Under the pieces are notes generated by a model. That model searched no databases. It was not told the DNA's origin and saw only the letters and a list, made by a program, of their open reading frames with translations. Shown here piece after piece: positions 21,948 to 39,874 of a stretch of DNA of 48,366 bases. A program made the position numbers and the translations under genes. Position 1 is the stretch's first letter; each line of letters starts with the position of its first letter. This stretch comes from Klebsiella phage KpnP_VR7901. Location of the stretch: the sequence record OM103162.1; one strand, 5' to 3'.

Positions 21948-22147
21948 TTATTCTCCATATTAGGGTGAAGGGCTTCTTGTAACCAGCTTGCTATAGCTTC
22001 TGCCTCTTTATTGCTAAAGCATAAGCTGCTCTTTCCCAGACCGTCGTTCATTTCAATTTCAAAAGGGTATTCAAAATCTCCACTCTCTTTGATACTGAGA
22101 TTGATAATTTCATTGTCCCATTCATCTTTAAAGATTAAAGGTTTCAT
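21944..22147 (-). CDS. small protein, C-terminal -MENK (LENK-family variant)
   Basis: 67 aa. Ends ATGGAGAATAAATGA with the stop overlapping the next ATG. Confidence 0.5.
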   Translation of the reverse strand: MKPLIFKDEWDNEIINLSIKESGDFEYPFEIEMNDGLGKSSLCFSNKEAEAIASWLQEALHPNMENK

Positions 22148-22264
22148 TTGTTCTCCAAATCAATTAGGTTTTCATCCCACTCTACGACATGCAGCATTCG
22201 TTCTCTGTCTAGCCGAACTCCTATATTACTGACTTCTCCCCTTTTGTGAAGTGTCCCGAGGAAA

Positions 22265-23065: not shown

Positions 23066-23141
23066 GCATCACCATTTTATTATATAGGGCTTCCTTGCCC
23101 GTTGTCATTATCTATCTAATTAAAAGCCCCAGTTCTCTTCA

Positions 23142-23870: not shown

Positions 23871-23891
23871 GTGTAATACCTCTTTTTATTA

Positions 23892-24080
23892 TTATTTTAA
23901 TTTTTTAACGGAACTAATGTTTACGGCATAAATTTCAGTTGTGTCTAACGGATTAAATAGAACAATCTCTTCCCCTTTTATCACTACAATACCAGCAACT
24001 TCTCCCTCTGTTGCCGCCTTAACAACACCCCCGTCATAGGGGATGTCTTTAGTTAACACCACTTTGCTTCCTGTTTTCAT
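23892..24080 (-). CDS. small protein (GDxV/KOW-like paralogue)
   Basis: 62-aa ORF in the early/middle block. Confidence 0.4.
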   Translation of the reverse strand: MKTGSKVVLTKDIPYDGGVVKAATEGEVAGIVVIKGEEIVLFNPLDTTEIYAVNISSVKKLK

Positions 24081-24265
24081 CAGATTTTACATGCTCCCGA
24101 TTCACAATCATCTGCGCCAATGTCAAGCTCTGCCAGTTGCTCCATGTAAACATCTGTCACAATGGCCTGCAGCTCCTCTTTGAATTGCTCAAGCTGTTCA
24201 AATGTCATGGGCTTAACATCATTGAAATAATAACGCCCAGTATATTTTTCATATGTTACTTTCAT
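24080..24265 (-). CDS. small hypothetical protein
   Basis: 61-aa ORF in the early/middle block. Confidence 0.4.
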   Translation of the reverse strand: MKVTYEKYTGRYYFNDVKPMTFEQLEQFKEELQAIVTDVYMEQLAELDIGADDCESGACKI

Positions 24266-24699
24266 TGTTTCCTCCAGTTTCTTTTCCGCCGATTAATTGT
24301 GGCTCTGTCTAAATTAAATATCTCACACAGCTGTGTGGTATCAGTTATCCCTAGCTCCAGGGTTAACAGAACCGCAGCTCTTCTGTCGTCACATCTTTCT
24401 CTATTAGTTTTGGCTTTATGTTCTGAGATGGGTAGGAGTTGTAGGTGCTGAGGGTTTTGACAGGCCCTATTTCGACACATGTGGTCAACCTCATAACCAT
24501 CTGGGATGGCTCCTATCTCAGTCTCATAAACGTATCTATGGTACATTGTCATCCTAGGTCTACTTTCAGATGGCCCTCTTCTGTCTAAGACTCGCAGGTA
24601 TCCATCCTTGTTTAAGCAGTGGCTTGTGCATATAATACAGCCAGAATCCAGTTTAATAAACTTTAATTCACGCATCCCCATTAGTGTGTCTCGCTCCAA
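24262..24699 (-). CDS. HNH endonuclease with C-terminal HTH
   Basis: VDHMCRNRACQNPQHLQLLPISEHKAKT HNH core. Overlaps the 3' end of the DNA polymerase gene by 19 nt. Confidence 0.6.
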   Translation of the reverse strand: MERDTLMGMRELKFIKLDSGCIICTSHCLNKDGYLRVLDRRGPSESRPRMTMYHRYVYETEIGAIPDGYEVDHMCRNRACQNPQHLQLLPISEHKAKTNRERCDDRRAAVLLTLELGITDTTQLCEIFNLDRATINRRKRNWRKQ

Positions 24700-26615: not shown

Positions 26616-26800
26616 TTATTCTCCAGTGTAGGGATGTATTCTTCCCATTCGTTTTCAAAGAAACCAGTGTCTAGAGAGTTTACAGAAGCAAAGCCATGTT
26701 CATCAATAGCGTCTGCATTTAGAACAGTTCCTGCTTTTAACACTCGGTTGTTATAATGCCATCCTAAATTAACATCTACAGTTAGAATGATTTCTTTCAT
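26612..26800 (-). CDS. small protein, C-terminal -TLENK
   Basis: 62 aa. Ends CTGGAGAATAAATGA, overlapping the polymerase ATG. Confidence 0.55.
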   Translation of the reverse strand: MKEIILTVDVNLGWHYNNRVLKAGTVLNADAIDEHGFASVNSLDTGFFENEWEEYIPTLENK

Positions 26801-27276
26801 TTCAAAGCCTCTCTCACTTTATTTGCATGGAACCTAACAGTGGTGAAAGGCACCCCAACAATCTCTGTCACTGTACGTAATGCCACTCCCTCCAACAGAT
26901 GTAAATACAGCCCTGTCTTCATTGGCTCTTTATAACGCTCAATAAGCTTTAAGGCATTCTCTGCTGTACTAAGGGCCTTCCATTTATCCTCCACCTCTCC
27001 ACCGAATGTATGATGCTCATCAATCTCTTCAGCGTCAATGCGGTCAGACATATAGTCTTTAATACGATTAAACAATGCAGCCCTCATTAAATATTTAATG
27101 TCATAACGACCATGTAAGCGAGGAGCTGCCTTTAGGAGAGCTTCATACGTATCCATCAGGGCATCCTCTGCCCATAGATTCCCTAATTTATTATTAGCAA
27201 TACGTAGAAGGTTCTTATAATCTGTACGGAAGTTCTCCTCAATCAATCCGTACATAGTGTCTGAGGTGTAAGTCAT
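26797..27276 (-). CDS. ECF-like sigma factor (sigma-70 regions 2 and 4)
   Basis: Region 2-like YLMRAALFNRIKDYMSDR. Region 4 HTH LYLHLLEGVALRTVTEIVGVPFTTVRFHANKVREALK. The start is placed at ATG 27276 (ATGA overlap with the upstream stop); the track ORF extends to 27390. Confidence 0.6.
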   Translation of the reverse strand: MTYTSDTMYGLIEENFRTDYKNLLRIANNKLGNLWAEDALMDTYEALLKAAPRLHGRYDIKYLMRAALFNRIKDYMSDRIDAEEIDEHHTFGGEVEDKWKALSTAENALKLIERYKEPMKTGLYLHLLEGVALRTVTEIVGVPFTTVRFHANKVREALK

Positions 27277-27851
27277 TTTCCGTGCCTCTCTGTGTACCCC
27301 AGTCTGGCGGCAACCTCTGCCCTCACAGAACAAGCCTCTTCGTAGGTGTCGTACTGACCAATACTGATGTTTGACACAATCACCCTCCACTTGCTGTTAT
27401 CTTTTCTAAAATAAACCCCCGTCGCCCCACTACTGTTGTCCTTGCGCTTCTTCATGTTTCGGCTATTAACCTCTACGTTTGCATCTCTAAGATTTACCCA
27501 CCTATTATCATCTCTAACTCCGTTCATATGGTCTACGCATTCAGGCCAAGCCCCCAGCATATACATAAAGGCGAGTCGATGAGCTTGATACTGAAGACCT
27601 TTCATGCCGGGGACGCTGATTCTTACATAACCCTTCCCTGTGATGAATCCAACCTCATCCCCGGCCCTATGATGTTTAGTATCTACTCTCGTGGTAAATA
27701 TGCCAGTCTCTGGATTATAATCCAATACCTCTCTTAAATACTCTTTTGTAATCATAGTTCTGTAAACATCCCATTTGCTTTGTTCCAGTATAAGTTTGTT
27801 GGACCAACTTCTCCGAATTCCCTGTCCTCCAAGAGAACAAGTTGTCGGCAA
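27273..27851 (-). CDS. HNH endonuclease with AP2-like domain
   Basis: VDHMNGVRDDNRWVNLRDA HNH_3-type, then GVYFRKDNSKWRVIV...YDTYEEACSVRAEVAARLGY. Confidence 0.6.
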   Translation of the reverse strand: MPTTCSLGGQGIRRSWSNKLILEQSKWDVYRTMITKEYLREVLDYNPETGIFTTRVDTKHHRAGDEVGFITGKGYVRISVPGMKGLQYQAHRLAFMYMLGAWPECVDHMNGVRDDNRWVNLRDANVEVNSRNMKKRKDNSSGATGVYFRKDNSKWRVIVSNISIGQYDTYEEACSVRAEVAARLGYTERHGK

Positions 27852-29407
27852 TTTCTATCCTCTTCTGCAAGCTCCGGGTCTTTATTCCCCTCAATACCAA
27901 ACATATAGTTACAAGAACGTGCCATAGCACGGCTCCCTGCAAACTGAGAGGACAGCACCTTCCCACCACGTTCATGGGGAGTGCCGCTCTCTGGATTACG
28001 CAAGTGACAGAAGATGAAGATGACAATATCTAAATCCAATGCCATAGCTGCCAGCTCCTGTGCAATCTCTTGCAACTTGGTGTTAGCTGTTGCTGCGTCC
28101 ATACCATTCACTAAGTTGGTGATGGGGTCAATGAATACAGCCTTCACCCCCTGAGCCACTGACGCCCTAATATCAGCCTTCAGTGTCTCCCAGCCTAAGT
28201 GTTGGTACAGATTGAGCAACACCACCTTGCCCCTCATCACCTCACATGCTTGGTCATAACGTCGTTCATCAAATGGAATTTCAGGGTCATGGAAGATGGC
28301 CTGTGCTATTTTACCAGCCAGAAGCTTAACGCTCTTAACGTTAGCTTCCTCTGGTTTAGCCAGCAACACCTTAAGCCCATGCTCCTTAATCAAGTGAGCG
28401 GCAATGGCATTCACCACCTCACTCTTACCCATCTTCTGAGCCGCACCAATGTAGATGGTTTCCCCAAAGCGTATGCCACGAGTTTTCTTAGTGGTTTCTC
28501 TCCAAGGCCAAGACAGGCCATATTCAGCTGGCTTCTTACCTGCTTCAAATAAGTCCTCAGCATACACTAGACGAGTGTTCTTAGGAGTGCCAGCATCAAA
28601 CATTACCGATTTAAATAATGCCTTAATATGGCCTTCCAAGACGCATTCGTTAACATCTTTTCCGGGGACTGTTGCAACCTTTGCCTCCGGCAAGATTTTA
28701 AGAACTTCATCCACAGCAGCCTTTCCAGCCGCATCATTATCGAATACCAGAACCACCTCTTTAAAGTGCTTCCTAATGTCGGACAGCACCAGTGCAATGT
28801 CCCGACTTGCAGCCGCCGCTCCGTGAGGGACAGAGACAACCGCAGGTATATTTCCTTCATATTGACCACCTTTATTACGCTGCATAATGACAGAGAAGAG
28901 GGACATAGCATCAATCTCCCCCTCTGTAATAAACAGCTTAGGACTGCCTGATTGAATGGCCTTGCTCCACCCGAAAGGAAATACACGCTTGCAATTGCCT
29001 AAGCTGCGTATCACTTTACCTTCCACAATGCGGAATTTATATCCTGACAACTTGCCAGTTTCATAGCTCTCATATGGATAGTAGTGGATAGCCACATGTT
29101 CTTGACGCTCTTGGTCTAAGCTCACTTTAACCCCGAAGTAGTCTACAGTGGCTTTACCAATCTTGCGGTCATCCAGCCCTCTCACCGGATAGGAAGAGAT
29201 TTCATCCATTTCTTCCTGGATTTCTTCTGGTGTACGAGCTGTACGTTCAATGCCAGCCCTCTCCATTGTATTCCCATTTAATGGGTCAGGCTCATATTTA
29301 TGGCAAGCGAAACACCATCCGTTAACACTGCCATCCTCCTCTTGGTACAGATTTAACCCCTGCCGGGTCCCGCAGTGATGCCCAGTTCTCCCCACCAGCA
29401 TAGCCAT
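27752..29407 (-). CDS. primase-helicase (T7 gp4-like)
   Basis: N-terminal Cys4 zinc ribbon (HHCG...CFACH). TOPRIM ITEGEIDAMSL. DnaB-type Walker A IGAAQKMGKSE and Walker B-like DLDIVIFIFCH. Confidence 0.8.
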   Translation of the reverse strand: MAMLVGRTGHHCGTRQGLNLYQEEDGSVNGWCFACHKYEPDPLNGNTMERAGIERTARTPEEIQEEMDEISSYPVRGLDDRKIGKATVDYFGVKVSLDQERQEHVAIHYYPYESYETGKLSGYKFRIVEGKVIRSLGNCKRVFPFGWSKAIQSGSPKLFITEGEIDAMSLFSVIMQRNKGGQYEGNIPAVVSVPHGAAAASRDIALVLSDIRKHFKEVVLVFDNDAAGKAAVDEVLKILPEAKVATVPGKDVNECVLEGHIKALFKSVMFDAGTPKNTRLVYAEDLFEAGKKPAEYGLSWPWRETTKKTRGIRFGETIYIGAAQKMGKSEVVNAIAAHLIKEHGLKVLLAKPEEANVKSVKLLAGKIAQAIFHDPEIPFDERRYDQACEVMRGKVVLLNLYQHLGWETLKADIRASVAQGVKAVFIDPITNLVNGMDAATANTKLQEIAQELAAMALDLDIVIFIFCHLRNPESGTPHERGGKVLSSQFAGSRAMARSCNYMFGIEGNKDPELAEEDRNCRQLVLLEDREFGEVGPTNLYWNKANGMFTEL

Positions 29408-29853
29408 TACTCCACCTCCTTTAAAAGGTTGAAAAATTCATTATAGGCATCTTGCGCCTCCTCTTTAGTGTTAAACACTCCTATATAGACGAAACGGTCA
29501 TAGTATGTCAGGAAAGCTTGCCACTTATTTCTATGTTTTCTGAATCCCGGGGAGTTATCCTTACGATTCAGTTGGTTATCCCTTGGCGAGACAACCCTTA
29601 GATTTTCGATACGATTGTCTGTTTTATCCCGGTTTATGTGGTCAATTTGCATTCCTTTAGGGACAGGTCCGTTATGGAGCTCCCATACACATTGGTGAAC
29701 ACTTCTTGTCCTGCCTTGGATTGTTATGTAGCAATACCCGTTCTTGTTGTTGAGATGCCCCTTCACAACACAATCGGCTTTGGCTTTGGTCCCTCTATTA
29801 ACCTTATTATAGAGTTCCCCTTCCTTGTAATAAAGTAAATCTGATATACTCAT
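29407..29853 (-). CDS. HNH endonuclease with AP2-like domain
   Basis: QIDHINRDKTDNRIENLRVVSPRDN, then NKWQAFLTYYDRFVYIGVFNTKEEAQDAYNEF. Confidence 0.6.
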   Translation of the reverse strand: MSISDLLYYKEGELYNKVNRGTKAKADCVVKGHLNNKNGYCYITIQGRTRSVHQCVWELHNGPVPKGMQIDHINRDKTDNRIENLRVVSPRDNQLNRKDNSPGFRKHRNKWQAFLTYYDRFVYIGVFNTKEEAQDAYNEFFNLLKEVE

Positions 29854-29891
29854 CTTGTCTCCTTTATAATTATTGTTATGGAGAATATTTA

Positions 29892-30119
29892 TTATTTATT
29901 TTCTAGTGTGAAATGATGCTTAAGCTCCACCTTATCGTAATCAACCGACCATACTCCATCGTCAACCCACTTTGGGCCTTTAAACCATGGGGAGGTTGAG
30001 GCATCATCTATGTACAAAACAACTTCATCTCCAATTTTAAAATACCTACCACCATAATTGTCCTTAATTATAAATACATCCCCCTCTCTCCATCCTCTAC
30101 TCTCACATGGTGTCATCAT
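29892..30119 (-). CDS. small protein, C-terminal -TLENK (CTA GAA AAT AAA TAA)
   Basis: 75 aa. Contains a GDVFIIKD / IGDEVVLY SH3/KOW-like pattern. Confidence 0.55.
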   Translation of the reverse strand: MMTPCESRGWREGDVFIIKDNYGGRYFKIGDEVVLYIDDASTSPWFKGPKWVDDGVWSVDYDKVELKHHFTLENK

Positions 30120-30328
30120 TTATTCTCCAATTCAACATGGACAGGTATTAGTTCCCACCCCACCTCTGTAAGACTCTCTACTGAGTGAGTACCAGTCCCC
30201 CATTTCCCGGATGGGAAGCGAACGTGTCCAGTTTTAATATTAAAATAAAATCCCTCAAGGTCTCTGTATACCATCTGGTGTGTAATTTCATCCATTGAAC
30301 ACCTCCTGAAAGCGTTGCTTATAACCAT
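30116..30328 (-). CDS. small protein, C-terminal -ELENK
   Basis: 70 aa. TTG GAG AAT AAA TGA overlaps the next ATG. Confidence 0.55.
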   Translation of the reverse strand: MVISNAFRRCSMDEITHQMVYRDLEGFYFNIKTGHVRFPSGKWGTGTHSVESLTEVGWELIPVHVELENK

Positions 30329-31058
30329 CCAGCGTAGTGCCTGACAGGCCCGGAGCCGTGTTCACCTCTAACACATAATACTTATCTTCACGAGCATTAA
30401 AGATGAGGTCTACAGCCCCAAAATCAAGTCCTAATGCAGCTACAGCCTTAACAGCCTCCTCAGACGCTACAGGAGAAGCTACAACGCCTTCACGAGCGAA
30501 GATAAACCCACCATCAAGGTTACGCACTTGCCAGTTCACAGCGTCGTCTGGGACGTCACGTTTACGTGCTTTACGCTGAATGTCCACCACTTGCCCCATG
30601 AATACATGGTAACGATATTCTTCCTGCTTTTTCACATAAGCAGTGTAGAGAGGAGCCAGTACAACGGCGTCGCTGTTATCACAAATAACAATACCAGCCC
30701 CGCTATGCCCATTAAGGACAGTGCGGCATACAACGCTTGAGTTAGGAGTATTTTGAAGATATTCACATGCGTCAGCCTTACTTGTGAAGAATGGGGGGAT
30801 AGTGACACCGGCTTCTTGGAAAAGTTCAAAACTTTTTAATTTATTTGAGGCTTTACGAATGGCCTCTGGCTTGTTGAGGATGCGTTGACATGCCATCACT
30901 TGGTCAGGCAATGTGCCAGCTCCCCAATTGATGATAGCTTTTCCCATTCCCCCACGGAACTTGCTGTTGCCATGCTTGATGCGTTTTACGTTCAACGCTT
31001 GAGATAGGAGCTTAGCCCCTTCAGAATGCGGATTGTGTGAATAGATGTACACTTTCAT
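30288..31058 (-). CDS. ATP-grasp ligase (RimK/GshB-like)
   Basis: C-terminal ATP-grasp signature DKYYVLEVNTAPGLSG and a Lys/Gly-rich N-terminal nucleotide-binding region. Confidence 0.65.
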   Translation of the reverse strand: MKVYIYSHNPHSEGAKLLSQALNVKRIKHGNSKFRGGMGKAIINWGAGTLPDQVMACQRILNKPEAIRKASNKLKSFELFQEAGVTIPPFFTSKADACEYLQNTPNSSVVCRTVLNGHSGAGIVICDNSDAVVLAPLYTAYVKKQEEYRYHVFMGQVVDIQRKARKRDVPDDAVNWQVRNLDGGFIFAREGVVASPVASEEAVKAVAALGLDFGAVDLIFNAREDKYYVLEVNTAPGLSGTTLDGYKQRFQEVFNG

Positions 31059-31117
31059 TTATTTATTCTCCAGAGAAAATGGAGCTAGCATGAGGGTGTA
31101 AAAGGGCAGAGAGGTCC

Positions 31118-31258
31118 TCATGAGATTCCCCCTTTCCCATCATCACGCCTGAACCAAAAAAGATTTTCATCAATTTTTTTTTCAACTGTAGCACAAGACT
31201 TCTCCCAAGAGCTGCCTTTTAAATTGATGAACTGTACTCTGTCACCTACATTGTACAT
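31118..31258 (-). CDS. small protein (GDxV paralogue, 46 aa)
   Basis: The track ORF 31118..31363 overlaps the upstream gene by 104 nt. The internal ATG 31258 (MYNVGDRVQF...) sits 1 nt after that gene's TAA. Confidence 0.4.
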   Translation of the reverse strand: MYNVGDRVQFINLKGSSWEKSCATVEKKIDENLFWFRRDDGKGGIS

Positions 31259-31259
31259 A

Positions 31260-32066
31260 TTACCAATCCCCCAAATAAGCAAATTGTTGTACACGACGAA
31301 TGCTGTCGTAGACAGACAATTCATATTTCTCTTCCCAAGGGATGTCCTTAGCGTATTTACCAAGAATCATCTTGTAGAAACCTTCTGGCCGCAGGTCACT
31401 CACTGAATAGACAACAGCGGTTGGGTTGTCAATCTCACGCGCCAGTCCTTTCAGATGTTGCAACAGCCCGCACCACCATTCAATAGCCGCTAAATCCCCA
31501 TCAGAGCGCCACGCTCTAAACTCAAGGGAGCCATAGTCCCCCAGAGCTTTAACGTTCACAGAGGCATAGCGGAGGTCGTCAGTGTGCAGTACAGACAGGT
31601 TTTGCTCTTTAATTGCAACACCCAGCATGTCAATCAAATATTCAGCGTCACACGCTCTCAGGCAGAACAGGTTGCCAATACGATGCTGCCCGCAGGTGTT
31701 CACCAGAATGTCTTCCACCACCAGATATAGAGACAGGAAGTTGAACAACTGCGTCACTGTCAAATCCCCACAGTTGATGTGAACATGCACACCAGCATTA
31801 GGGCTGTCTTTAATAACAGCTTCATTGCTTTTCCAAGCTTCTTCCATTAACGCTAAGGCCATCTTCGTTTCATTAAATGGAATGGGCTTCCGCAATACAT
31901 ATTCAAAGCTCTCTCCGCGTAAAGAGGGGTCGTTCTCACTCTTCCACACACCGTCTTCTACACGAGGGAGGTTAGTCCCTTCTGCCTCAATCTCAATACC
32001 AATATGGTCGGTGAGACGGCTCTGGAGCTTCAACACATCACGCACTAATTTTCTTTCAAAGGACAT
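31260..32066 (-). CDS. carboxylate-amine ligase, GCS2/YbdK/PafA-like amidoligase (copy 1)
   Basis: GIEIEAEG (compare YbdK GIELEMQV), ESFEYVL, NAGVHVHINCGD (compare QHVHVGCASGD), GSLEFRAWRSD (compare GTVEVRVMD). Confidence 0.6.
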   Translation of the reverse strand: MSFERKLVRDVLKLQSRLTDHIGIEIEAEGTNLPRVEDGVWKSENDPSLRGESFEYVLRKPIPFNETKMALALMEEAWKSNEAVIKDSPNAGVHVHINCGDLTVTQLFNFLSLYLVVEDILVNTCGQHRIGNLFCLRACDAEYLIDMLGVAIKEQNLSVLHTDDLRYASVNVKALGDYGSLEFRAWRSDGDLAAIEWWCGLLQHLKGLAREIDNPTAVVYSVSDLRPEGFYKMILGKYAKDIPWEEKYELSVYDSIRRVQQFAYLGDW

Positions 32067-32306
32067 TTATTTATTCTCCAACACTATATTTTCATGCTTC
32101 AATTCAGTATAGTGAACAAAATACCCGGAGGTATCTGTATGTTCGGCCAGTCCAAAGTTATGGTGCCCTTCGTAGAAGTTTTCAAACACAACTCCTAGGA
32201 ATCCGCTGTCCTCCCCTCTGGGTCCAAAACACACTACCTTACCCACCTTCCTCTTAAGAAAGCTTGTATGCCCAGTAAATTTAACACGATCCCCTACTTT
32301 AAACAT
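32067..32306 (-). CDS. small protein MFKVGDRVKF..., C-terminal -IVLENK
   Basis: 79 aa. TTG GAG AAT AAA TAA ATG junction. Confidence 0.55.
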   Translation of the reverse strand: MFKVGDRVKFTGHTSFLKRKVGKVVCFGPRGEDSGFLGVVFENFYEGHHNFGLAEHTDTSGYFVHYTELKHENIVLENK

Positions 32307-32887
32307 AGCGCTAACACCTCTTGCAGATAGAAACGTTCAGGCATGAGCTTAACACTCTGGTCTCCTACATACCCCACTACATCTCCACGATACATAAGAC
32401 ACAGCTCATCTTCTTTATCAGCTACAGCCCATTCACGATGGAAAGGGACAATCTTAGAAGCTCCAGAGCGTACAGCTTGGAATGCTTCTCCAATGTCAGG
32501 GAAGTCCCCTACAATCGTCTTAGCGACGCTTTTACTGAAAGGGCTCACCTCACTACGTCCCTGTCCAAATAAACGCTCTATGGGCTTCTCAAGGGCGTTA
32601 AAAGCGAAGAAGTTCTCCTGTGTCAGCCCTTGCTTGTATTTACGGACAGGTTTACGCATTGAGAAGAATACACGGCCACGGTCATCAATGACATAGCCCA
32701 GCTTAGCTGCATCAGGGGCCAAGTTGAGAGCTTCAATGCGTACAGAGCTGCTACGTCCTGTCAGCAAATCCTTTACAATCACCTTGTCCTTGCTCTCTGC
32801 TGCCTGAACAACAACAGGACGCTTCTCCCACATCACTAATGAATGACGCAGGCGAAGCTCTACATCTCTTTCGCTTTCGTAATACAT
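32294..32887 (-). CDS. hypothetical protein
   Basis: 197 aa, no recognisable motif. Embedded in the ligase cluster. Confidence 0.45.
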   Translation of the reverse strand: MYYESERDVELRLRHSLVMWEKRPVVVQAAESKDKVIVKDLLTGRSSSVRIEALNLAPDAAKLGYVIDDRGRVFFSMRKPVRKYKQGLTQENFFAFNALEKPIERLFGQGRSEVSPFSKSVAKTIVGDFPDIGEAFQAVRSGASKIVPFHREWAVADKEDELCLMYRGDVVGYVGDQSVKLMPERFYLQEVLALCLK

Positions 32888-33087
32888 TATTTATTCTCCA
32901 AGCTGGGAATATAAACATCAAATTCACATTCCCTTTCATCAAAATTGCAAATACCGCCTTTCGGGAGGTCTACAGTAATCAGGTCCCCGGGAAGCACTTC
33001 GAAATACCCAGACATGGCTTCTTTGCACACCTCGCAATTGCCACATGTGGTTTTTATAAGCCTAACCTTATCTCCAACATTAATCAT
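32887..33087 (-). CDS. small Cys-rich protein MINVGDKVRL..., C-terminal -PSLENK
   Basis: 66 aa, CGNCEVC plus C..C (possible zinc ribbon). TTG GAG AAT AAA TAA TG junction. Confidence 0.55.
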   Translation of the reverse strand: MINVGDKVRLIKTTCGNCEVCKEAMSGYFEVLPGDLITVDLPKGGICNFDERECEFDVYIPSLENK

Positions 33088-33899
33088 AATACAATCCCCG
33101 CTGGGAGAAGCAGCCCCTCTTCCTTGATGATGCGGGAAGCAGATGCCTTATCCGAAGTGTTGACAATACGTTGAGCTTCATCCCCGTATTTATCGAACAG
33201 GGAAACGCCCCGCTCAATACGCTCCATAGCGTCCATAGATGCCTTGTATGCCCAACGCTTCAGGTTGTCATCCTTCAGCCACTGATTGGAGAGAGTTCGG
33301 TATTCCATGCCATATTTCTTAGGACGGAATGCACCAGCTTTGCCGTACAGCTCACGACGTTTAGTGTCACTGTCGTAGAACAGAGAAGGAAGGCCCAGAT
33401 AGAAGTCCAGCTCCCGCACTTTAGCCGCCAGCCAAGCAATATAATCTGCATCATTCACTGGAGCATCATTACCAGTTTCAGGCAAGCCGAAGTGTATATG
33501 ACCAGCAGCAGAGCGGAACGGGAGTTCCCCGTTAGGACGTGGGTTAACATCGACAGTGTATGCGTCATAATCAGGGTCACAGCCAAGCTCCTTAGCTTCT
33601 TCTGGTTGAGCACGAATGTATTCAAAGCCGAAGTCTGCTACCGGGATGCACTCCAGCTTGTAGTCCGGCACCATGCTTGCCAAGATTTCCATGACGCCGT
33701 TGATATTGTCCATCCACGCCTGCTCACTATCTGCCGCGTCGATGTTAAATTCAAGGGCCATGCCATCCACTTGGACAGCACCACGATTTACTTTGAGGGG
33801 GTCGTGTTTACTGCCTTTGATGAGGCCATGAGCACTCACCAGTTTACCGTTACGAGAAACAAAAATTTCCGGGTCAGCACCAATTAAGATTTTAGACAT
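33084..33899 (-). CDS. carboxylate-amine ligase, GCS2/PafA-like amidoligase (copy 2)
   Basis: IGADPEIFV, GMALEFNI, AGHIHFGLPE, GMEYRTLSNQW: the same four-motif pattern as copy 1 and YbdK. Confidence 0.55.
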   Translation of the reverse strand: MSKILIGADPEIFVSRNGKLVSAHGLIKGSKHDPLKVNRGAVQVDGMALEFNIDAADSEQAWMDNINGVMEILASMVPDYKLECIPVADFGFEYIRAQPEEAKELGCDPDYDAYTVDVNPRPNGELPFRSAAGHIHFGLPETGNDAPVNDADYIAWLAAKVRELDFYLGLPSLFYDSDTKRRELYGKAGAFRPKKYGMEYRTLSNQWLKDDNLKRWAYKASMDAMERIERGVSLFDKYGDEAQRIVNTSDKASASRIIKEEGLLLPAGIVL

Positions 33900-33926
33900 G
33901 ATATATTCCTATGTTTGATGATAGCA

Positions 33927-35231
33927 TTAATTTGATAAAGTTTTTACACGGCATCCGGGAAGGAGGCGGCTACGCTGTTCACTAGTTAGCCCCTTGATAT
34001 CTTCCCAACAGGTCTTACAACAAATGTGGGCATCAGGAGAGGTGTAATACTCCTTCACTAACGTGCGGCAATACGAGCAACCCACTTTATAATTGAACTT
34101 ATGAAACTTCACCCCCGCTGGGAGCTGTTCCTCCTTCTTGCTTTCAGCTAAGGCAGCCTCTTCTAAATCCTCTAGCGTATAATAACATTTATCCGCTGTA
34201 TAGATAGAGAGGTATAGCCCAGCCTGTCCTGAATAATTCACTTTAGCAGTGAACACCATTTTATCTTCTGCCCACATCTCAGTGACTAAATCGTCATGAA
34301 CATCCAGCCTTACTTGAGTGATGCGGATAGGAACATCTTTGAGAGTTTTACCGATGATGTCTACATAATTGGCACCGTTCTGTACAAAATCACGGATGGT
34401 GTCCACTGTAAACTCTACAAAGTCACCGGTGTTTACGCCCTCTCTGTCGAGCCATTTGTCTTCTTCTCCCCAGCTTCTGCTGTAATTTCCGTAATAGCTT
34501 CCCGACCACTTTGGGGCTACATACGGCTCAACCTTAGTGGTCGTCCAGTCCACAATGTCGGTTGCTTTTTCAGGGAGAGTAAATTTATAGTGCATATCAA
34601 TCTGCACTTCACGGGGGGGTTCATCAAGCTTTAAGTCTTGACGCCCACAGGCTGCATGAATCATCCAGAATTCAGAAGCCCACACCAGAGTGCGTCCTTT
34701 GTTAGCTGTGCTAAACCACAAAGGGCGCTCTTTATTACGCAGGAAGTTAACAGTGTTGTCTGTCTTATCAATCCACGTTAAGGCGGCTGCTCCGTTTAAC
34801 TTGCCCCACAGAGAAGCTACGCCATTCTGGTTAAGCTCAGAGAATGCAGCTTGGCTATCCACTGCGTATTTCTCTTGCTCGAACAGGGTGTATTGGGAAA
34901 GAAGACTGCCGTTGTGTGCCCCAATAATATTAGGGAATTCAAATGGATGGGCATTCTCCTGAATGATGGCCCCCTTAGTGGCCCAACGATTGTGACCAAT
35001 AAGGATGTGATGCTTCTTAGCCATCAAATCAGAGAAGCCTTTCAAGTCCATGAAATCAACAGCGTTAAGCTTGTCCTTAAACACAGCTGTCTTGAATTCA
35101 TTCCCAATCTTATGCAATGAAGCAATGCCAGTGGAATGCTTCCCACGGATAACATCTAACAAGAGAAGGTCTTTAAACACTTTCTCTTCTTTAAAGGAGA
35201 TGTCTCCTGCCAGTCCAACGAGTCCGCAAAT
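33927..35231 (-). CDS. class II (Ntn) glutamine amidotransferase domain protein with Cys-rich C-terminal domain
   Basis: CGLVGLAGDIS (compare GlmS MCGIVG), LIGHNRWATKGAIIQENAHPF (compare [21 protein letters not shown]), GAHNGSL (compare HNGIIEN). The catalytic Cys codon (35228..35226) lies upstream of the first canonical start (GTG 35180). The only in-frame candidate start is ATT 35231..35229, 7 nt after a GGAGGA RBS. Confidence 0.55.
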   Translation of the reverse strand: MCGLVGLAGDISFKEEKVFKDLLLLDVIRGKHSTGIASLHKIGNEFKTAVFKDKLNAVDFMDLKGFSDLMAKKHHILIGHNRWATKGAIIQENAHPFEFPNIIGAHNGSLLSQYTLFEQEKYAVDSQAAFSELNQNGVASLWGKLNGAAALTWIDKTDNTVNFLRNKERPLWFSTANKGRTLVWASEFWMIHAACGRQDLKLDEPPREVQIDMHYKFTLPEKATDIVDWTTTKVEPYVAPKWSGSYYGNYSRSWGEEDKWLDREGVNTGDFVEFTVDTIRDFVQNGANYVDIIGKTLKDVPIRITQVRLDVHDDLVTEMWAEDKMVFTAKVNYSGQAGLYLSIYTADKCYYTLEDLEEAALAESKKEEQLPAGVKFHKFNYKVGCSYCRTLVKEYYTSPDAHICCKTCWEDIKGLTSEQRSRLLPGCRVKTLSN

Positions 35232-35262
35232 AGTATTATCCTCCGAAAGCCTGTGGCTTTGC

Positions 35263-35517
35263 TTATTTATTTTCTAAAGACAGATTGAAGAATTCAAGGT
35301 CGTCCTCATGGAACCACCAACCCCAGTCTATACCAAATTCTGGAGCGTGTAGGTATACGCTGTTGTATCCGATTCTTTTAACTTCCATGGGAAATCCTGA
35401 CACAGCAGCGCTCATGTTTCTCCCTCCGTCGCCACATTTAATTACTGTGAGGGAGTCGTCCCACATATCCAGAGGTATAGTGCAATATACAATATCCCCC
35501 TCTTTAAACTTGGGCAT
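35263..35517 (-). CDS. small protein MPKFKEGDIVY..., C-terminal -LSLENK (TTA GAA AAT AAA TAA)
   Basis: 84-aa ORF. A GDxV/SH3-like paralogue. Confidence 0.55.
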   Translation of the reverse strand: MPKFKEGDIVYCTIPLDMWDDSLTVIKCGDGGRNMSAAVSGFPMEVKRIGYNSVYLHAPEFGIDWGWWFHEDDLEFFNLSLENK

Positions 35518-36154
35518 ACAGCTCCTCCAGTTTATCGAAATACCATTGCTGACACGGGTGGTCTGAACTTACAAATTCAGGATGGGGTTGATAACAGAAC
35601 GCTTTAGTAGATGGGTAGAAACAAGCCTCCACTTCCACATCTGTATCTACATCCACTACTTCCCCCGGCTCTTCATGTGCAGGGGTCATCATGAATTTAC
35701 GAGAGCTGCGCATAACACTGCTCTTGCCCAACAAAATCCCGCACTCCCCGACAATCATCATCTGGTGGTGGAGAGAGGACACCGGGACCAGCTTACCAGT
35801 CTCTACATCCAGCATGTCATGAGTGCCATGAATGCCATGCCCCTTAACATCCTGATACATGTTACCACCAGACAGGGCATTGAGGAGCTGCCCGCCACGA
35901 CATACACCAGCAAGGAACTTGCCCTTCTGCTTTCCTTCTACAAAGGCTGCATACTCTTCACGGTCACGGCCCGGAGAGGTGTAGGTGGTGGGGTGTTCAT
36001 GTTGATTGTAGAACTTGGGGGAAATATCAGCTCCCCCCGTGAATTGTACAATGTCGGCCTCGTCAATGCTGTCTACGATTGTATAACCGCGCTTAGTGTA
36101 CATTGAATGGAATTGATGGAAGAAGGAAGTGCCTACGATGAATACTTTTTTCAT
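35504..36154 (-). CDS. class I glutamine amidotransferase-like / peptidase C26 (gamma-glutamyl hydrolase-like)
   Basis: Nucleophile elbow GVCRGGQLLN and C-terminal YQPHPEF (the vQfHPE motif). Confidence 0.6.
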   Translation of the reverse strand: MKKVFIVGTSFFHQFHSMYTKRGYTIVDSIDEADIVQFTGGADISPKFYNQHEHPTTYTSPGRDREEYAAFVEGKQKGKFLAGVCRGGQLLNALSGGNMYQDVKGHGIHGTHDMLDVETGKLVPVSSLHHQMMIVGECGILLGKSSVMRSSRKFMMTPAHEEPGEVVDVDTDVEVEACFYPSTKAFCYQPHPEFVSSDHPCQQWYFDKLEELYAQV

Positions 36155-36349
36155 TTATTTGTTCTCCAGGCTGAGGTGATGAATGGATAAGTGATGTTGA
36201 TTGTAGTGGGCAGCGCCTCCTCCCTCCCATTCTACTCTATATTCATAATCCCTTCGGGATTTATAATCCGTACTAGTTATTACCCCGACCTTTTTACCGA
36301 AGTTATTGCTGGGAAATTTAAACAGAGCTAGTTGCGTTGGCTCTACCAA
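36155..36349 (-). CDS. small protein, C-terminal -LSLENK (CTG GAG AAC AAA TAA)
   Basis: 64 aa. Stop followed immediately by the ATG of the GATase I gene. Confidence 0.55.
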   Translation of the reverse strand: MVEPTQLALFKFPSNNFGKKVGVITSTDYKSRRDYEYRVEWEGGGAAHYNQHHLSIHHLSLENK

Positions 36350-36373
36350 TCCCCTACCTTAAACAAGCTCATA

Positions 36374-37765
36374 TTACACCCCGTGCTTCGCCATCCAGTC
36401 TTCAATTAAATCACACACCCGGTCTACGCATTCATCGATAGGAAGCGAAGCCCCCCACTGACCGCCACCTTTAACAGCACTGAGTTTGCTGAACATCTCG
36501 GACTTGTTCTCCTTGAAATCCTTGCTCCACATCCCATCTACGCCATAGTCATTGCTGCCTGACGCATTGAAACTCTCGCTGTATTTCTTCTTACCAGCGC
36601 GTTCGGGGGTGTGTTTGATGAAATTGAGGATGCATTTGTCAGACAGGCCGCTGTTATTCAGGTGACTATGTCCATTCCCCGCCTCTGACATTTTCATCTT
36701 ACCATTTGCGTATTCGCTGGTTTGGCAGCCAAACACAAAGGCAACATCCAGAGGAATGCCCGCTTTGTACAGCTCAAGGAAGCCCTCAGCTCGTGCCGGT
36801 TTCTCCCAGATTTGACGAGTGGCAAAGCAAGCCCCTACAAGAATACAATTAGGAACGTCAGCTGTTAACACATAGCCATATTTCTTAATGTATTCAGGGT
36901 CTTTAGTGAGGAATGCGTCAGCATACGGGCTGTAGCTGGTGAGGTAGGCAATCCACAGGTCAGTGGCTTCCTCACTTGCTTTCCCTTTCACCCAACCGTT
37001 GTTATCTTTTACATCGTTGATGCCGATGGTGGTGACATATGCCACCTTACGCACTGTACATTCACGTTGTAAATCAGCATGACACGCTTGTCCTGTGCTC
37101 TTGCTTACCTTCGTCAACTCTGCGTTGTGACGAGAGAAGGATACGTTAGAACGATGGTTTTCACGTAAAGCGTTGAGCGTAGGTGTCAGCTTGTCAATTA
37201 CCTCTTGATGCTCAACGCTTACAGGCTTTGGGGGCAGAGGCAGCTCTACCGCACCAATTCCCATACGTTCAGCACGAGGAATGCGCCATTCAGGAGCCTC
37301 AGCCGGGAAGATGGAGGACATGAGGAAGTTGTTAGTGTAGGGCTGGTTTGTATCGGGGTCGATGGTTTCCCCTTTATGCCGTAGCAGCGTTAGCCCAAAG
37401 CCCTGTGAGCGCCCATCACGGTCAAGGTGTAGCTCTGCACTGTCAAACTTAAACACCTTGCCTTGCCAGCCCTCAGCTTGCATACGAGGGGTGAAGCGAG
37501 GCCATGCATTGAAGTCGGAGCAGTTGACAACAACGTTCGTATCAGCAGAGGATGGGTCATAGGCCCAAGCCCCCGCTGTTTCAGTGCTAAAACGCAGCTC
37601 TGTCTTTGTGCCTAACACCTGCACTTTAACACTTTTCGCGGCTTTACTAATCACTTTGCAGAACAGGCCATTAGGCACATTCAGCACTTTGCTTTTCGGA
37701 TTGTGAGCTACAATAATCTGGTTCACTTCCAGACGAGCATTAGTGAGCTTTCTATACTGACTCAT
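36374..37765 (-). CDS. hypothetical protein (463 aa) adjoining the ligase cluster
   Basis: Long ORF, no motif recognised by eye. One GATGATAGCATT box lies ~125 bp upstream. Confidence 0.5.
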   Translation of the reverse strand: MSQYRKLTNARLEVNQIIVAHNPKSKVLNVPNGLFCKVISKAAKSVKVQVLGTKTELRFSTETAGAWAYDPSSADTNVVVNCSDFNAWPRFTPRMQAEGWQGKVFKFDSAELHLDRDGRSQGFGLTLLRHKGETIDPDTNQPYTNNFLMSSIFPAEAPEWRIPRAERMGIGAVELPLPPKPVSVEHQEVIDKLTPTLNALRENHRSNVSFSRHNAELTKVSKSTGQACHADLQRECTVRKVAYVTTIGINDVKDNNGWVKGKASEEATDLWIAYLTSYSPYADAFLTKDPEYIKKYGYVLTADVPNCILVGACFATRQIWEKPARAEGFLELYKAGIPLDVAFVFGCQTSEYANGKMKMSEAGNGHSHLNNSGLSDKCILNFIKHTPERAGKKKYSESFNASGSNDYGVDGMWSKDFKENKSEMFSKLSAVKGGGQWGASLPIDECVDRVCDLIEDWMAKHGV

Positions 37766-37901
37766 TAGTCACCTCTTTAGGTTGATTGATTTTAAGGCCC
37801 ACAGGGGCCTCTACAGGACACTTTAGAATGAAGGCATACCATCGTATACCCTCATGGCTTAAAACCGCTCACAATGCTTTACAGAGCGTTTGATGATAGC
37901 A

Positions 37902-38096
37902 TTATTGTCCACGCCCCCACTTGAGTGCAGATTCTATGAGAAACCCCACTAGAGAGATGGGCCAAAGAACAGACGCTAAAATAATACTTAATGTTACAAC
38001 CCCTACGTGGTAACGTGTGTCCTTCATGTTTGCTATGGTGGAGAAAAGCATCCACACAATAATTCCGATGATGTAGATTGTTGATGCCATAATCAC
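37902..38096 (-). CDS. small membrane protein
   Basis: 64 aa, two predicted TM helices. Confidence 0.45.
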   Translation of the reverse strand: MIMASTIYIIGIIVWMLFSTIANMKDTRYHVGVVTLSIILASVLWPISLVGFLIESALKWGRGQ

Positions 38097-38332
38097 ACCT
38101 TATTCAATTCGTTCCCATTGAGAACGATGTTATACGGAAGGTCTGGATGAGCCTTCACATGTTCATCAATCAACGCCTGTACATAATCACTACAGATGCC
38201 GTTAACTACGATGGTGGGTTGACCAGTGCGTTCAATGACACACCCTTCTCCAACTTCCATGTACCCCGGATTTTCGTGTACTACGAACAGGGAATGTAAC
38301 GCTATTGTAATGACAATGAGAGACGTTGACAT
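38093..38332 (-). CDS. small secreted/periplasmic protein
   Basis: 79 aa, N-terminal signal-like segment MSTSLIVITIALHSLFVV. Confidence 0.45.
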   Translation of the reverse strand: MSTSLIVITIALHSLFVVHENPGYMEVGEGCVIERTGQPTIVVNGICSDYVQALIDEHVKAHPDLPYNIVLNGNELNKV

Positions 38333-38340
38333 GATGTCAC

Positions 38341-38670
38341 CTATAATTCATCAGCTACACATGCCAAGACGAATCCTATAATAACGCCCAAAACAACACT
38401 CGCCCTGAATGTTGCCCAGCCCACCTGGCTAGCAGCCTCTTTAAAAACGGAAGCATCCCATGTAACGAACACAGCCCCTATTACGAGGATAATCCTTATC
38501 AAGTATAGCGCAACTATCACGACTGTTGTGCCCAACAGCCAAAGTCCAAAGAACTCTTTCATACCCCACCTCTTAAAAGTATTTCTTACCTTTCTGGTAA
38601 GCTGCCCGTTTACCTGTAGAAGTACGCAGGATGTGAGGAACAAAGTTGAATTGCTCCGTACCATCTTCAT
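38341..38670 (-). CDS. membrane protein
   Basis: 109 aa, three or more hydrophobic helices. Confidence 0.45.
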   Translation of the reverse strand: MKMVRSNSTLFLTSCVLLQVNGQLTRKVRNTFKRWGMKEFFGLWLLGTTVVIVALYLIRIILVIGAVFVTWDASVFKEAASQVGWATFRASVVLGVIIGFVLACVADEL

Positions 38671-38794
38671 TCAGCCGCCCATTGGGCACAGCCACAGTTT
38701 TAACAACCTTGTCGTTGTATTCACGTTCCGCAGAAGGAACGAAGCCAATCAGTTTACGCAGAAGTTTAGATTGTTTATGGCTCATAGTTTTCAC
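38573..38794 (-). CDS. small basic protein
   Basis: 73 aa. Overlaps the 38341..38670 ORF in another frame, so one of the two may be mis-started. Confidence 0.3.
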   Translation of the reverse strand: MKTMSHKQSKLLRKLIGFVPSAEREYNDKVVKTVAVPNGRLNEDGTEQFNFVPHILRTSTGKRAAYQKGKKYF

Positions 38795-39529
38795 CTATTT
38801 AAGTTTATAAAGTTTTTCCCAGCCTGCTAATGTTACGCTGTCTGGGGTTGTTATTTCATACGGCAGTGGGTTAAGGGGTACGCTGTCTTTATTGAACAGC
38901 GGGGATAGGTTTGCAATAAGCTGCATCTCAACGATGTGCATCATGCAATCAGGCAACTGTGTTACCCTTACATCTGTAACTTTGTATCTGATATCTTCGG
39001 TGTAGAACTTAGTGGGGTCGCTCAGATGCACTCTAAGACGGCTTCTCAAATCTAAGGACTTCCCTACATACAGGGGAACATCTCCGCTCCACACCTCATA
39101 CACGCCGCCTAAGATGCACATATCCTCCTTCATCTCTCTCTTTAGGGATGCTGCGGGGATTCTCCAGAGGATTCCTTCTTTGTCAGTGAATACCACCTTA
39201 GCTTGGGCAGGGTAGGGATATCCCTCCGTGGCTGAAGATATGTATTCTATGTCCTCAATGCACCATCCTTGCTTCCTCATCCAAGCTGTAAGCTCTGAGG
39301 TGTACGCAGCCTCATTGAATACCTTAACACGATGTTCCGCGTCATAGCTGGTATTTAGCGTCCCTTTCTCCTCCTTTACAGCCTTAACGGAGGCTGCATA
39401 GTATGACGCGTTAGTTCCAAGGTCTGACGCATGAGACCCATAGTCATAAGGAGCCTGTGCGGAGAGCCTCCCCTCTCCAAATCTTGCGATTTTATCAAAG
39501 AATTTTTTACTCATGTTGTACAAACTCAC
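38795..39529 (-). CDS. GIY-YIG nuclease-domain protein
   Basis: GGVYEVWSGDVPLYVGKSLDLRSRLRVH around residues 140-170 (GIY...YIG...R...H pattern). The domain is unusually central/C-terminal. Confidence 0.5.
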   Translation of the reverse strand: MSLYNMSKKFFDKIARFGEGRLSAQAPYDYGSHASDLGTNASYYAASVKAVKEEKGTLNTSYDAEHRVKVFNEAAYTSELTAWMRKQGWCIEDIEYISSATEGYPYPAQAKVVFTDKEGILWRIPAASLKREMKEDMCILGGVYEVWSGDVPLYVGKSLDLRSRLRVHLSDPTKFYTEDIRYKVTDVRVTQLPDCMMHIVEMQLIANLSPLFNKDSVPLNPLPYEITTPDSVTLAGWEKLYKLK

Positions 39530-39547
39530 GTTTAAAGGTGGATATAC

Positions 39548-39635
39548 TGTATGGGGGATTATAGGGGGGCATCCTTTTAGTCTTTTATTATTTATTTATT
39601 ATCTATTATAATTAATATAATATATAATAGAATGT
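39548..39635. repeat. G-box (GTATGGGGGATTATAGGGGGGCAT) plus AT-rich tract; copy B of the direct repeat
   Basis: Seen directly. Intergenic between the minus-strand genes 38795..39529 and 39672..39869. On the minus strand it reads CCCCCCTATAATCCCCC. Confidence 0.6.
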
Positions 39636-39671
39636 ATGAACGAATGAAATGAGTGAATGGCTAATAGAGTA

Positions 39672-39869
39672 TTAATCTACTCTTTCATAACCTTTATCCT
39701 TATGCCATAACATTAGATACTTTAGGAATGCTTGAGCTGTTAGCTCCGAGTCACTTGCGTTCTCAGAGAGCAACTCCCAGCCTTCACCATCACGCATAAG
39801 AAGGATGATAGCATTCCCTTCCTTGACCAGCTTGCGTACATCACCAGTCTTTTTGTTAGTGAATACCAT
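39672..39869 (-). CDS. small hypothetical protein
   Basis: 65 aa, preceded by the CTGGAGAATAAATAATG cassette. Confidence 0.45.
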   Translation of the reverse strand: MVFTNKKTGDVRKLVKEGNAIILLMRDGEGWELLSENASDSELTAQAFLKYLMLWHKDKGYERVD

Positions 39870-39874
39870 TATTT

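Follow-up and report, generated by a model that had tools for sequence, protein, structure and literature searches.

A phage amidoligase module in Klebsiella phage KpnP_VR7901 and its predicted role in gamma-glutamyl or amide modification

Klebsiella phage KpnP_VR7901 (sequence record OM103162.1) carries a cluster of five enzyme genes that an initial annotation had singled out as a possible peptide-ligation or peptide-tag modification system. The whole 48,366-nucleotide stretch analyzed here (the window) is a complete or near-complete podophage genome of the Citrovirus group (Zobellviridae), and all five enzyme genes lie on its minus strand, in an early/middle block that runs into the genes for the primase/helicase, a sigma-like factor and the DNA polymerase. 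In order, the cluster encodes a Peptidase_C26 protein with the class I glutamine amidotransferase (GATase) fold that is gamma-glutamyl hydrolase-like (C26; 35504-36154, 216 amino acids (aa)), a class II or N-terminal nucleophile (Ntn) GATase with a C-terminal extension (33927-35231), a phiEco32-like COOH-NH2 ligase type 2 of the glutamine synthetase (GS)/GCS2-like superfamily (33084-33899, 271 aa), a core non-enzymatic protein of 197 aa that we refer to as f197 (32294-32887), an Amidoligase_2, i.e. a second GS-like carboxylate-amine ligase (31260-32066, 268 aa), and a RimK-like ATP-grasp ligase whose N-terminal domain is reduced (30288-31058, 256 aa). We consider it on balance probable that this cluster represents, in its Citrovirus form, a conserved amidoligase module that is essentially confined to phages and that builds and trims a gamma-glutamyl or amide adduct on a target that is probably macromolecular.

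Profile searches recovered the families that had been proposed for all five open reading frames (ORFs), with every Pfam score above its gathering threshold, the catalytic residues kept and no assignment to an unrelated family. PHROG matches were much stronger than the Pfam matches (E about 1e-49 to 1e-93), and in alignments with orthologues from LUZ24, Kuravirus 172-1 and the crAss-like phage cr108_1 the expected catalytic residues were all invariant among these distant relatives. Both GS-like ligases keep the signature ExE...E...HxH...ExR, which comprises metal and ATP residues. The invariant residues of the Amidoligase_2 (PF12224, 41 bits against a cut-off of 22, E 2.6e-10; phrog_7469, E 3e-84; orthologous to LUZ24 gp18 and 172-1 ORF104) are E27/E29, E55, H94/H96 and E182-F183-R184, and those in the COOH-NH2 ligase (PF14395, 37.9 bits against a cut-off of 25, E 1.6e-9; phrog_3815, E 3e-84) are D9-P10-E11, E50, H134/H136 and E199-Y200-R201 across Citrovirus, LUZ24, Kuravirus and crAss-like sequences. 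The description of the two enzymes as GCS2/PafA-like holds at the superfamily level, but neither Pup_ligase nor GCS2 was among their Pfam matches. The ATP-grasp protein matched the RimK-like family (PF08443, 29.2 bits against a cut-off of 21, E 8e-7; phrog_2599, E 1e-93) and, among PDB sequences, alpha-L-glutamate ligases and RimK (7qys, 5zct and 4iwx, E about 1e-7), and it has an invariant H118-S-G-x-G122 loop and D217/E231/N233. It scored below the RimK family cut-off (TIGR00768, 49.2 against 143.4) and below that of the S6 ligase equivalog (PRK10446, 37 against 331), and its alignment to PDB relatives begins at residue 38-39, i.e. the N-terminal substrate domain is shortened. C26 (PF07722, 62.5 bits against a cut-off of 20.5, E 6e-17; phrog_7218, E 9e-49) matched Lin1909 (3fij, 3e-8) and a Pseudomonas 'probable glutamine amidotransferase' (7d4r) in the PDB sequence search, resembles PuuD-type hydrolases, and has a C85/H191/E193 triad that is conserved with cr108_1.

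The GATase domain proper (GATase_6, PF13522, 47.4 bits against a cut-off of 27, E 2.4e-12) spans about residues 1-240, and its PDB matches are to GlmS and PurF, in each case to the N-terminal domain. Its C2, R82, N107-G108 and D125 are invariant, and alignment to GlmS places them with R73, N98-G99 and the D123 equivalent. Relatives carry the name 'L-glutamine-D-fructose-6-phosphate aminotransferase'; we rejected identity with GlmS, as the TIGR01135 score was 31 bits against a cut-off of 418 and the match was confined to residues 2-109. The C-terminal extension is lineage-specific and ends in a CxxC...CxxC zinc ribbon, its Cys motifs being read from the sequence, and such a ribbon also terminates the LUZ24 and Kuravirus orthologues. 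The C-terminal half, where GlmS would have its SIS isomerase domains, had no Pfam match and only three close homologues, all near-identical fragments, among 5.8 billion proteins.

Where translation of the GATase begins decides whether it has a nucleophile. The initial annotation had placed the start at 35231, where an ATT codon (35231-35229) directly precedes the nucleophile Cys and a GGAGG lies 8 nt upstream; the frame upstream of the alternative GTG is open and encodes I-CGLVGLAGD. The GTG at 35180, which is the start of the mechanically called ORF and of the GenBank entries for phages Klyazma and Asterion, is 17 codons past the nucleophile and omits it, so that a GATase expressed from the annotated start would be without its catalytic Cys. 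We take the start at 35231 to be correct because relatives have a start codon directly before the Cys codon (ATC-TGT in Klyazma, with a synonymous Cys change, ATT-TGC in Asterion, TTG-TGT in CVT22, ATG-TGC in Pecta and ATG-TGT in LUZ24) and because the PHROG profiles (phrog_4736/18128, with alignments beginning at profile position 1-2) reach their first positions only with the ATT-extended protein. The class II GATase features, i.e. an N-terminal Cys after the initiator, the Arg, the Asn-Gly and the Asp, are likewise all found only from the ATT. Judged by these comparisons, translation of the GATase is predicted to begin at a rare ATT/ATC codon. Just upstream of its Shine-Dalgarno (SD) sequence, at 35246-35260, the minus strand has a 6-bp hairpin (AAAGCC-ACA-GGCTTT) whose stem is kept in Asterion and Klyazma (with one G-U pair) and whose loop is changed (TGT, ATA); it may regulate the ATT-initiated gene. 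The GATase orthologue of Kuravirus 172-1 (ORF103; L004 10672) has an annotated N-terminus without the MCG nucleophile motif, and this start may be mis-annotated or the gene interrupted.

The 5.9 kb of cluster DNA are 92% identical to the corresponding DNA of Klebsiella phage vB_KpnP-Asterion and 94% identical to that of vB_KpnP_Klyazma, where the same genes are annotated as ATP-grasp protein, amidoligase, COOH-NH2 ligase, amidotransferase and glutamine amidotransferase. Flanking the cluster are an accessory protein of 463 aa (p463; 36374-37765, minus strand), encoded directly upstream of C26, and, downstream, the DNA primase/helicase (27752-29407, minus strand), a conserved neighbor named from annotation in relatives. 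Because the cluster genes are tightly packed on one strand, with overlaps or gaps of at most 38 nt, and because promoter and terminator matches in the region were no commoner than in shuffled sequence, we read the module as a single transcription unit that is expressed with the early/middle replication genes. The module proteins are all soluble, and no tRNAs were found in a tRNA scan.

A tblastn search found the COOH-NH2 ligase in 314 phage records, including Pseudomonas LUZ24/PaP3- and O4-like phages, Escherichia phiEco32-like Kuravirus, phages of Vibrio, Aeromonas, Proteus, Salmonella and Cronobacter, a crAss-like phage and Cellulophaga phi14:2. From at least 453 IMG/VR contigs encoding a relative, 80 loci were taken via this ligase and their ORFs were scored with a profile of each module component. 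As well as the COOH-NH2 ligase (80/80), almost all loci contained f197 (79/80), the Amidoligase_2 (78/80), the class II GATase (78/80) and the ATP-grasp ligase (74/80); the primase/helicase followed the module in 72/80 and C26 was present in 69/80. The order GATase, COOH-NH2 ligase, f197, Amidoligase_2 recurred in nearly all 80, and the more divergent loci had a LUZ24-like order, yet retained the succession COOH-NH2 ligase, f197, Amidoligase_2. In LUZ24 itself the COOH-NH2 ligase (gp16) is followed in turn by a 189-aa protein (gp17), Amidoligase_2 (gp18), GATase (gp19), ATP-grasp (gp21), gamma-glutamyl cyclotransferase (GGCT; gp22) and primase/helicase (gp24), and Kuravirus 172-1 has the same arrangement. 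Orthology of the enzymes here was detectable to LUZ24 gp16/18/19/21 and to 172-1 ORF106/104/103/100, and the crAss-like phage cr108_1 carries module orthologues that include C26.

All four co-directional enzyme families that define the phage amidoligase module are therefore found in this cluster, and the associated gamma-glutamyl-cleaving enzyme, which in the prototypes is GGCT/AIG2, is here the Peptidase_C26, with no GGCT in the cluster. This enzyme alternates between lineages, being C26 here and in cr108_1 and GGCT in LUZ24 and Kuravirus (GGCT was present in 11/80 of the IMG/VR loci), and we infer that within the module C26 is functionally equivalent to GGCT. In 185,579 cellular genomes (one bacterial or archaeal genome per species) there were only 45 matches to the COOH-NH2 ligase. 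These were mostly contigs of metagenome-assembled genomes (MAGs), many of them of phage-genome size (45-50 kb) with the same module genes, in bins that include some labelled Patescibacteria and Bacilli. Because cellular matches are few and most of them appear to be phage DNA that ended up in bins, the COOH-NH2 ligase family is for practical purposes restricted to phages.

The small protein between the two GS-like ligases was overlooked by the initial annotation. f197 had no Pfam or NCBIfam match, and its family comprises 3146 representatives at the 50% identity cluster level (E <= 1e-3); a locus search with an alignment of close f197 relatives returned 8 loci. The AlphaFold2 model is confident (pLDDT 91) and consists of two small beta-barrels with flanking helices, which we read with confidence as a non-enzymatic protein with tandem Tudor/KOW/SH3-like barrels. 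Conservation in the family is strongest in an inter-strand loop with the motif R78-x-P80-x-R82-x-x-K85-Q86-G87, where R78, P80, R82, Q86 and G87 are conserved at 91-100%. Because it stands between the GS-like ligases in 79 of the 80 loci, f197 is a core member of the module, and it offers a defined non-enzymatic partner that is testable as an acceptor or adaptor. The accessory p463, present in 30/80 of the related loci directly upstream of C26, likewise begins with Tudor-like barrels, which are followed by a confidently modeled C-terminal domain of unrecognized fold, without a PDB match. Its invariant C228-H229 and H366 hint at an enzyme.

The observation that the cluster genes alternate with small ORFs ending in LENK stood, and such tails also occur outside the cluster, from 21946 to 39871, i.e. 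across the whole early/middle region, including beside the genes for the DNA polymerase and the sigma factor. On the minus strand there are ten ORFs with a LENK end (at 39871, 36157, 35265, 32889, 32069, 31061, 30118, 29894, 26614 and 22146) and one with a MENK end (at 21946), and no plus-strand ORF ends in LENK; the LENK-tailed small ORFs in the cluster occupy 36155-36349, 35263-35517, 32887-33087, 32067-32306, 30116-30328 and 29892-30119 (all minus). The encoding DNA is YTGGAGAAYAAAT[AG]A, and in 8 of the 10 copies these codons double as the SD GGAG and the spacer for the gene that follows, its ATG overlapping the stop or lying directly against it. CVT22 has 17 LENE tails and Pecta 16 LEND tails, and more distant phages end in EELI, ERLV, EDYM, EDWL, KGNK or VENE, each with a purine-rich SD. 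On this evidence a large part of the LENK pattern is best read as a translational-coupling cassette. We did not fully accept that the tails are a mere SD motif, because nearly all of their variation is synonymous and the peptide persists in decoupled copies: in a DNA-based search allowing two mismatches, stop-adjacent copies differed almost only synonymously, and copies without an adjacent start keep the peptide and lose the SD by synonymous change (TTA GAA AAT AAA at 35277 and 29906 here; GAA GAA CTT ATC in the IMG/VR locus L085). The tails thus look to be under an amino-acid-level constraint on top of the coupling cassette. A paralogue-family signature was ruled out, as there is no homology beyond the tail. 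Stereotyped tails of their own are seen in the IMG/VR loci L085 (12193-13517), L093 (13311-14404), L066, L073 and L020, namely FEELI, VERLV, LEDYM, LEDWL and FKGNK, each on an SD with an ATGA-type overlap, and copies without the overlap again diverge only synonymously. The GATase orthologue LUZ24 gp19 (L003 11040) ends in ...CVIENK, which fits the occurrence of ENK-type endings from a GAGAAYAAA SD-spacer outside Citrovirus too. Such tails are an independent curiosity that bears on the mutual constraint of translational coupling and protein sequence.

The cassettes that bear LENK tails differ between the window, Klyazma, Asterion and CVT22, and the small LENK ORFs are variable cassettes outside the conserved module. 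Between the Amidoligase_2 and ATP-grasp genes, at 31059-31260 (minus), there is a small ORF (MYNVGDRVQF...) whose stop falls within a G5 run, where one additional G would join it to a downstream frame ending in LENK; it could reflect a frameshift, a sequencing error or a pseudogene. The matching slot, with the same conserved junctions, holds an unrelated cassette in Asterion and an HNH nuclease in Klyazma. Homing-endonuclease-like genes of the HNH (some with AP2-type DNA-binding domains) and GIY-YIG types lie between or beside the replication and module genes (29407-29853, 27273-27851, 21468-21947, 20724-21227 and 38795-39529), and they are placed differently in Klyazma and Asterion, in which the primase/helicase is split by an HNH gene.

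Judged from sequence, the most likely function of the cluster is the ATP-dependent gamma-glutamyl or amide modification of a target. Ligases of the GS/GCS2 type convert a carboxylate to an acyl-phosphate and then to an amide, and in GshA, PuuA and PafA the carboxylate is a glutamyl gamma-carboxylate. By analogy, the two GS-like ligases would convert a carboxylate (most likely a glutamyl gamma-carboxylate) to an activated acyl-phosphate and couple it with an amine, and the ATP-grasp ligase, whose closest characterized relatives are alpha-L-glutamate ligases, would add a further amino acid. The GATase appears to retain a pocket that fits a glutamyl group whose alpha-amino and alpha-carboxyl groups are free; because the residues that hold these groups in GlmS are kept, we expect it to act on free glutamine or a gamma-glutamyl amide, and it would either amidate the activated carboxylate with ammonia from glutamine or cleave a gamma-glutamyl amide. 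PuuD-type C26 hydrolases and GGCT both require a gamma-glutamyl group with free alpha groups, and C26, or GGCT in its place in LUZ24 and Kuravirus, would take that group off. The target would most likely be a macromolecule, i.e. a phage or host protein recruited by f197, or the invariant basic loop of f197 itself. We favor a macromolecular target chiefly on the indirect ground that Tudor/KOW-like barrels and zinc ribbons, such as those predicted in f197, p463 and the GATase, usually hold macromolecules.

Several points weigh against this proposal. The steps beyond 'ATP-dependent amide ligases plus glutamine/gamma-glutamyl amidohydrolases' come from the chemistry of the families, and PDB sequence searches gave no solved relative of the two GS-like ligases from which to read their carboxylate and amine specificities. 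Nucleic acids are bound by small barrels as well, and f197 might serve as a scaffold without acting as an acceptor; K85 in its loop is conserved in only 76% of the family. LUZ24 gp17 gave no match to f197 by BLAST or with a 144-sequence hidden Markov model (HMM), and 172-1 ORF105 matched that HMM weakly (E 1.5e-5), so that outside Zobellviridae-like lineages the universality of f197 would rest on position and size. The published prediction, as worded in the passages of the genome papers that cite it, favors peptidoglycan precursors. A more specific version, which we regard as speculative and rather improbable, is that the ligases and the ATP-grasp enzyme build a gamma-glutamyl or peptide adduct on the f197 basic loop, or on a host translation or transcription factor recruited by f197, with the GATase and C26 editing the product and the amino-acid-constrained LEN[K/E/D] tails, which in Citrovirus-like phages stand on a dozen unrelated early proteins, as a second and possibly linked recognition signal. 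If true, this would be a phage-specific protein modification resembling EF-P beta-lysylation or pupylation.

Two alternatives seem to us unlikely, though each deserves serious weight. In the one, the ligases would introduce or change unusual peptide linkages in the stem peptides of cytoplasmic murein precursors and the GATase would amidate them, which would block superinfection or ready the wall for lysis. To judge from Ddl and MurT/GatD, the gamma-D-Glu linkages and the free carboxylates and amines of stem peptides would suit GS-like and ATP-grasp ligases; the ATP-grasp protein here weakly matches D-Ala-D-Ala ligases, and soluble module proteins are compatible with cytoplasmic precursors. This is also the published reading, attributed to Iyer et al. 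2009 in the relevant passages of later genome papers (PMC10580990, PMC11945000). However, the module has no Mur-ligase, transpeptidase or membrane component and is always found within the replication gene block, its Tudor/KOW-like barrels and zinc ribbon would be unexpected for a nucleotide-sugar-peptide substrate, its hosts have very different walls (Pseudomonadota, Bacteroidota and the MAG bins labelled Patescibacteria and Bacilli), and no supporting experiment was found in the literature searched. In the other, which we rate about as low, a gamma-glutamyl amine, polyamine or short peptide would be made or recycled, or nitrogen metabolism assisted, and there would be no macromolecular target. 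The pairing of a GS-like ligase with C26 follows the logic of PuuA/PuuD, that of a GCS2-like ligase with an ATP-grasp enzyme follows GshA/GshB, and that with a class II GATase-like amidohydrolase follows EgtA/EgtC; C26 matches PuuD-type structures, the GATase pocket suits free glutamine or gamma-Glu-X, and marine phage papers class the genes as auxiliary metabolic genes (PMC10580990). What speaks against this pathway is that the COOH-NH2 ligase type 2 and f197 are practically absent from cells, which is unusual for a borrowed pathway, that a non-enzymatic tandem barrel invariably lies between the two ligases, and that the GATase carries a zinc ribbon.

We give much less credence to two further explanations. 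The initial annotation had called the LENK-tailed proteins obvious substrates or tags, which would receive C-terminal amino acids from the RimK-like ATP-grasp ligase or be conjugated in a Pup-like manner by the GS-like ligases. RimK-family ligases do act on C-terminal acceptors, e.g. S6, or LysW in the case of LysX, and the tails are real and stereotyped, keep their peptide when the GGAG is dropped, and are all that the tailed proteins have in common. The proposal nevertheless fails on distribution. There is no recurrent C-terminal tail in LUZ24, Kuravirus 172-1, cr108_1 or about 67 of the 80 uncultured phage loci, and no module component co-varied with the presence of a tail. Because the tails are absent from most module loci and do not co-vary with module genes, a role as its general substrate can be dismissed, and nothing was seen in favor of a link confined to one lineage. 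They also extend throughout the early region, their terminal residue differs among relatives (K, E, D, I, V, M or L), the FKGNK type has no acidic residue, 8 of the 10 tails here supply the SD, the spacer and an overlapping start for the gene that follows, and none has a Pup-like GGQ or GGE end; LENK-tailed proteins are therefore probably not a target of the module, and we judge this explanation highly improbable. An equally slight chance attaches to hypermodification of DNA or nucleotides, with the ligases and amidotransferases decorating a phage DNA base against restriction. The module always lies in the replication block beside the primase/helicase, small barrels and zinc ribbons can bind nucleic acid, and in some viral contigs amidoligase and amidotransferase genes occur alongside thymidine-hypermodification genes (PMC8989533). 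Set against this, no enzyme able to install a base handle (such as dUMP/dCMP hydroxymethylase, 5-hmU DNA kinase, aGPT-Pplase, DpdA or TET/JBP) was matched among the early-region ORFs scanned, some small ORFs being outside the scan, no report of unusual DNA was found for relatives, and close relatives have been sequenced and assembled routinely.

The enzyme combination was correctly recognized in the initial annotation as a computationally predicted phage amidoligase system, a prediction that genome papers attribute to Iyer et al. 2009, and its statement that none had been characterized biochemically agrees with the literature searched, in which we found genome descriptions only. The novelty of the cluster was overstated, because close relatives are already annotated in this way and the COOH-NH2 ligase occurs in 314 phage records; the module is known and widespread. 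Genome papers, in the parts dealing with these genes, use the label 'putative peptidoglycan modification module', and some later ones suggest that the module may block superinfection, in both cases citing Iyer et al. 2009 (PMC10580990, PMC11945000). In the part of a 2023 paper that concerns them, the functions of the module genes are described as still to be explored, and the same Pfam families are listed in a LUZ24-like genome paper (PMC3890496). An mBio 2025 paper on amino-acid reprogramming by phage concerns JBD44 Eht1/2 and is unrelated to the module. What is added here is the correction of the GATase start, the six-gene core including f197, the alternation of C26 and GGCT, the phage restriction of the family, and the evidence that the LENK tails are separate from the module, for which f197 is the better acceptor or adaptor candidate. 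The window is no new kind of system, but it provides a compact form of the module in a culturable Klebsiella phage. Among enzyme sets with an as yet only predicted role, the module is one of the most widespread in lytic podophages, and its carriers include therapeutic Pseudomonas, Klebsiella and E. coli phages and a crAss-like gut phage. Finding out what it makes would account for a conserved infection step and could expose new amide-ligation chemistry.

Among known systems, EF-P offers a structural parallel. It is a KOW/SH3-like barrel protein in which a dedicated ligase attaches an amide-linked modification to a conserved basic loop at the tip of a hairpin (beta-lysylation by EpmA), and f197, with its predicted barrels and invariant RxPxRxxKQG loop, may be likened to EF-P and to hypusinated eIF5A. 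This is a resemblance only, as f197 has no sequence homology to EF-P and EpmA is unrelated to the phage ligases. The two GS-like ligases share their carboxylate-amine ligase superfamily with PafA and Dop, and the Pup-PafA-Dop system and the phage module have in common the theme of a deamidation or amidation enzyme combined with a ligase. The module proteins had no Pup_ligase among their Pfam matches, and no window ORF of at least 30 aa ends in GGQ, GGE or EE. The phage also encodes, 10 kb from the module, an HslV/proteasome-beta-like Ntn peptidase (19383-19862, minus, 159 aa, N-terminus MTT; phrog_1040, E 4e-23) that had no Pfam or PDB sequence match. We rejected it as a partner of the module, since its homologues occur in 47 phage records, mostly of jumbo phages, and do not track the module.

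The RimK family (RimK, MptN, CofF and LysX) provides the best sequence relatives of the ATP-grasp ligase, which keeps their Mg/ATP residues and flexible Gly loop but falls below the family and equivalog cut-offs and has the shortened substrate domain; no S6-like or LysW-like acceptor was identified for it. PuuA is a gamma-glutamylputrescine synthetase and PuuD a gamma-glutamyl-GABA hydrolase, and EgtA/EgtC act in ergothioneine synthesis. As here, these systems combine a GS/GCS2-like ligase with a gamma-glutamyl amidohydrolase that is C26 or class II GATase-like, so that a gamma-glutamyl group is attached and removed again; unlike them, the phage module has no oxidase, dehydrogenase or other tailoring enzyme, and it has three ligases rather than one, a barrel protein and phage-restricted families. 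The closest counterpart is the module of phiEco32 and LUZ24 (Iyer, Abhiman, Burroughs & Aravind 2009). In that module the gamma-glutamyl-cleaving enzyme is GGCT rather than Peptidase_C26, the GATase is encoded downstream of the ligases in LUZ24 rather than upstream, two upstream proteins of roughly 320 aa in LUZ24 and Kuravirus take the place of p463, and the variable small cassettes that separate the module genes here mark a further difference. The four enzyme families are nonetheless the same, with detectable orthology, and so are the core order, with a protein of roughly 190-205 aa between the GS-like ligases, and the position upstream of the primase/helicase.

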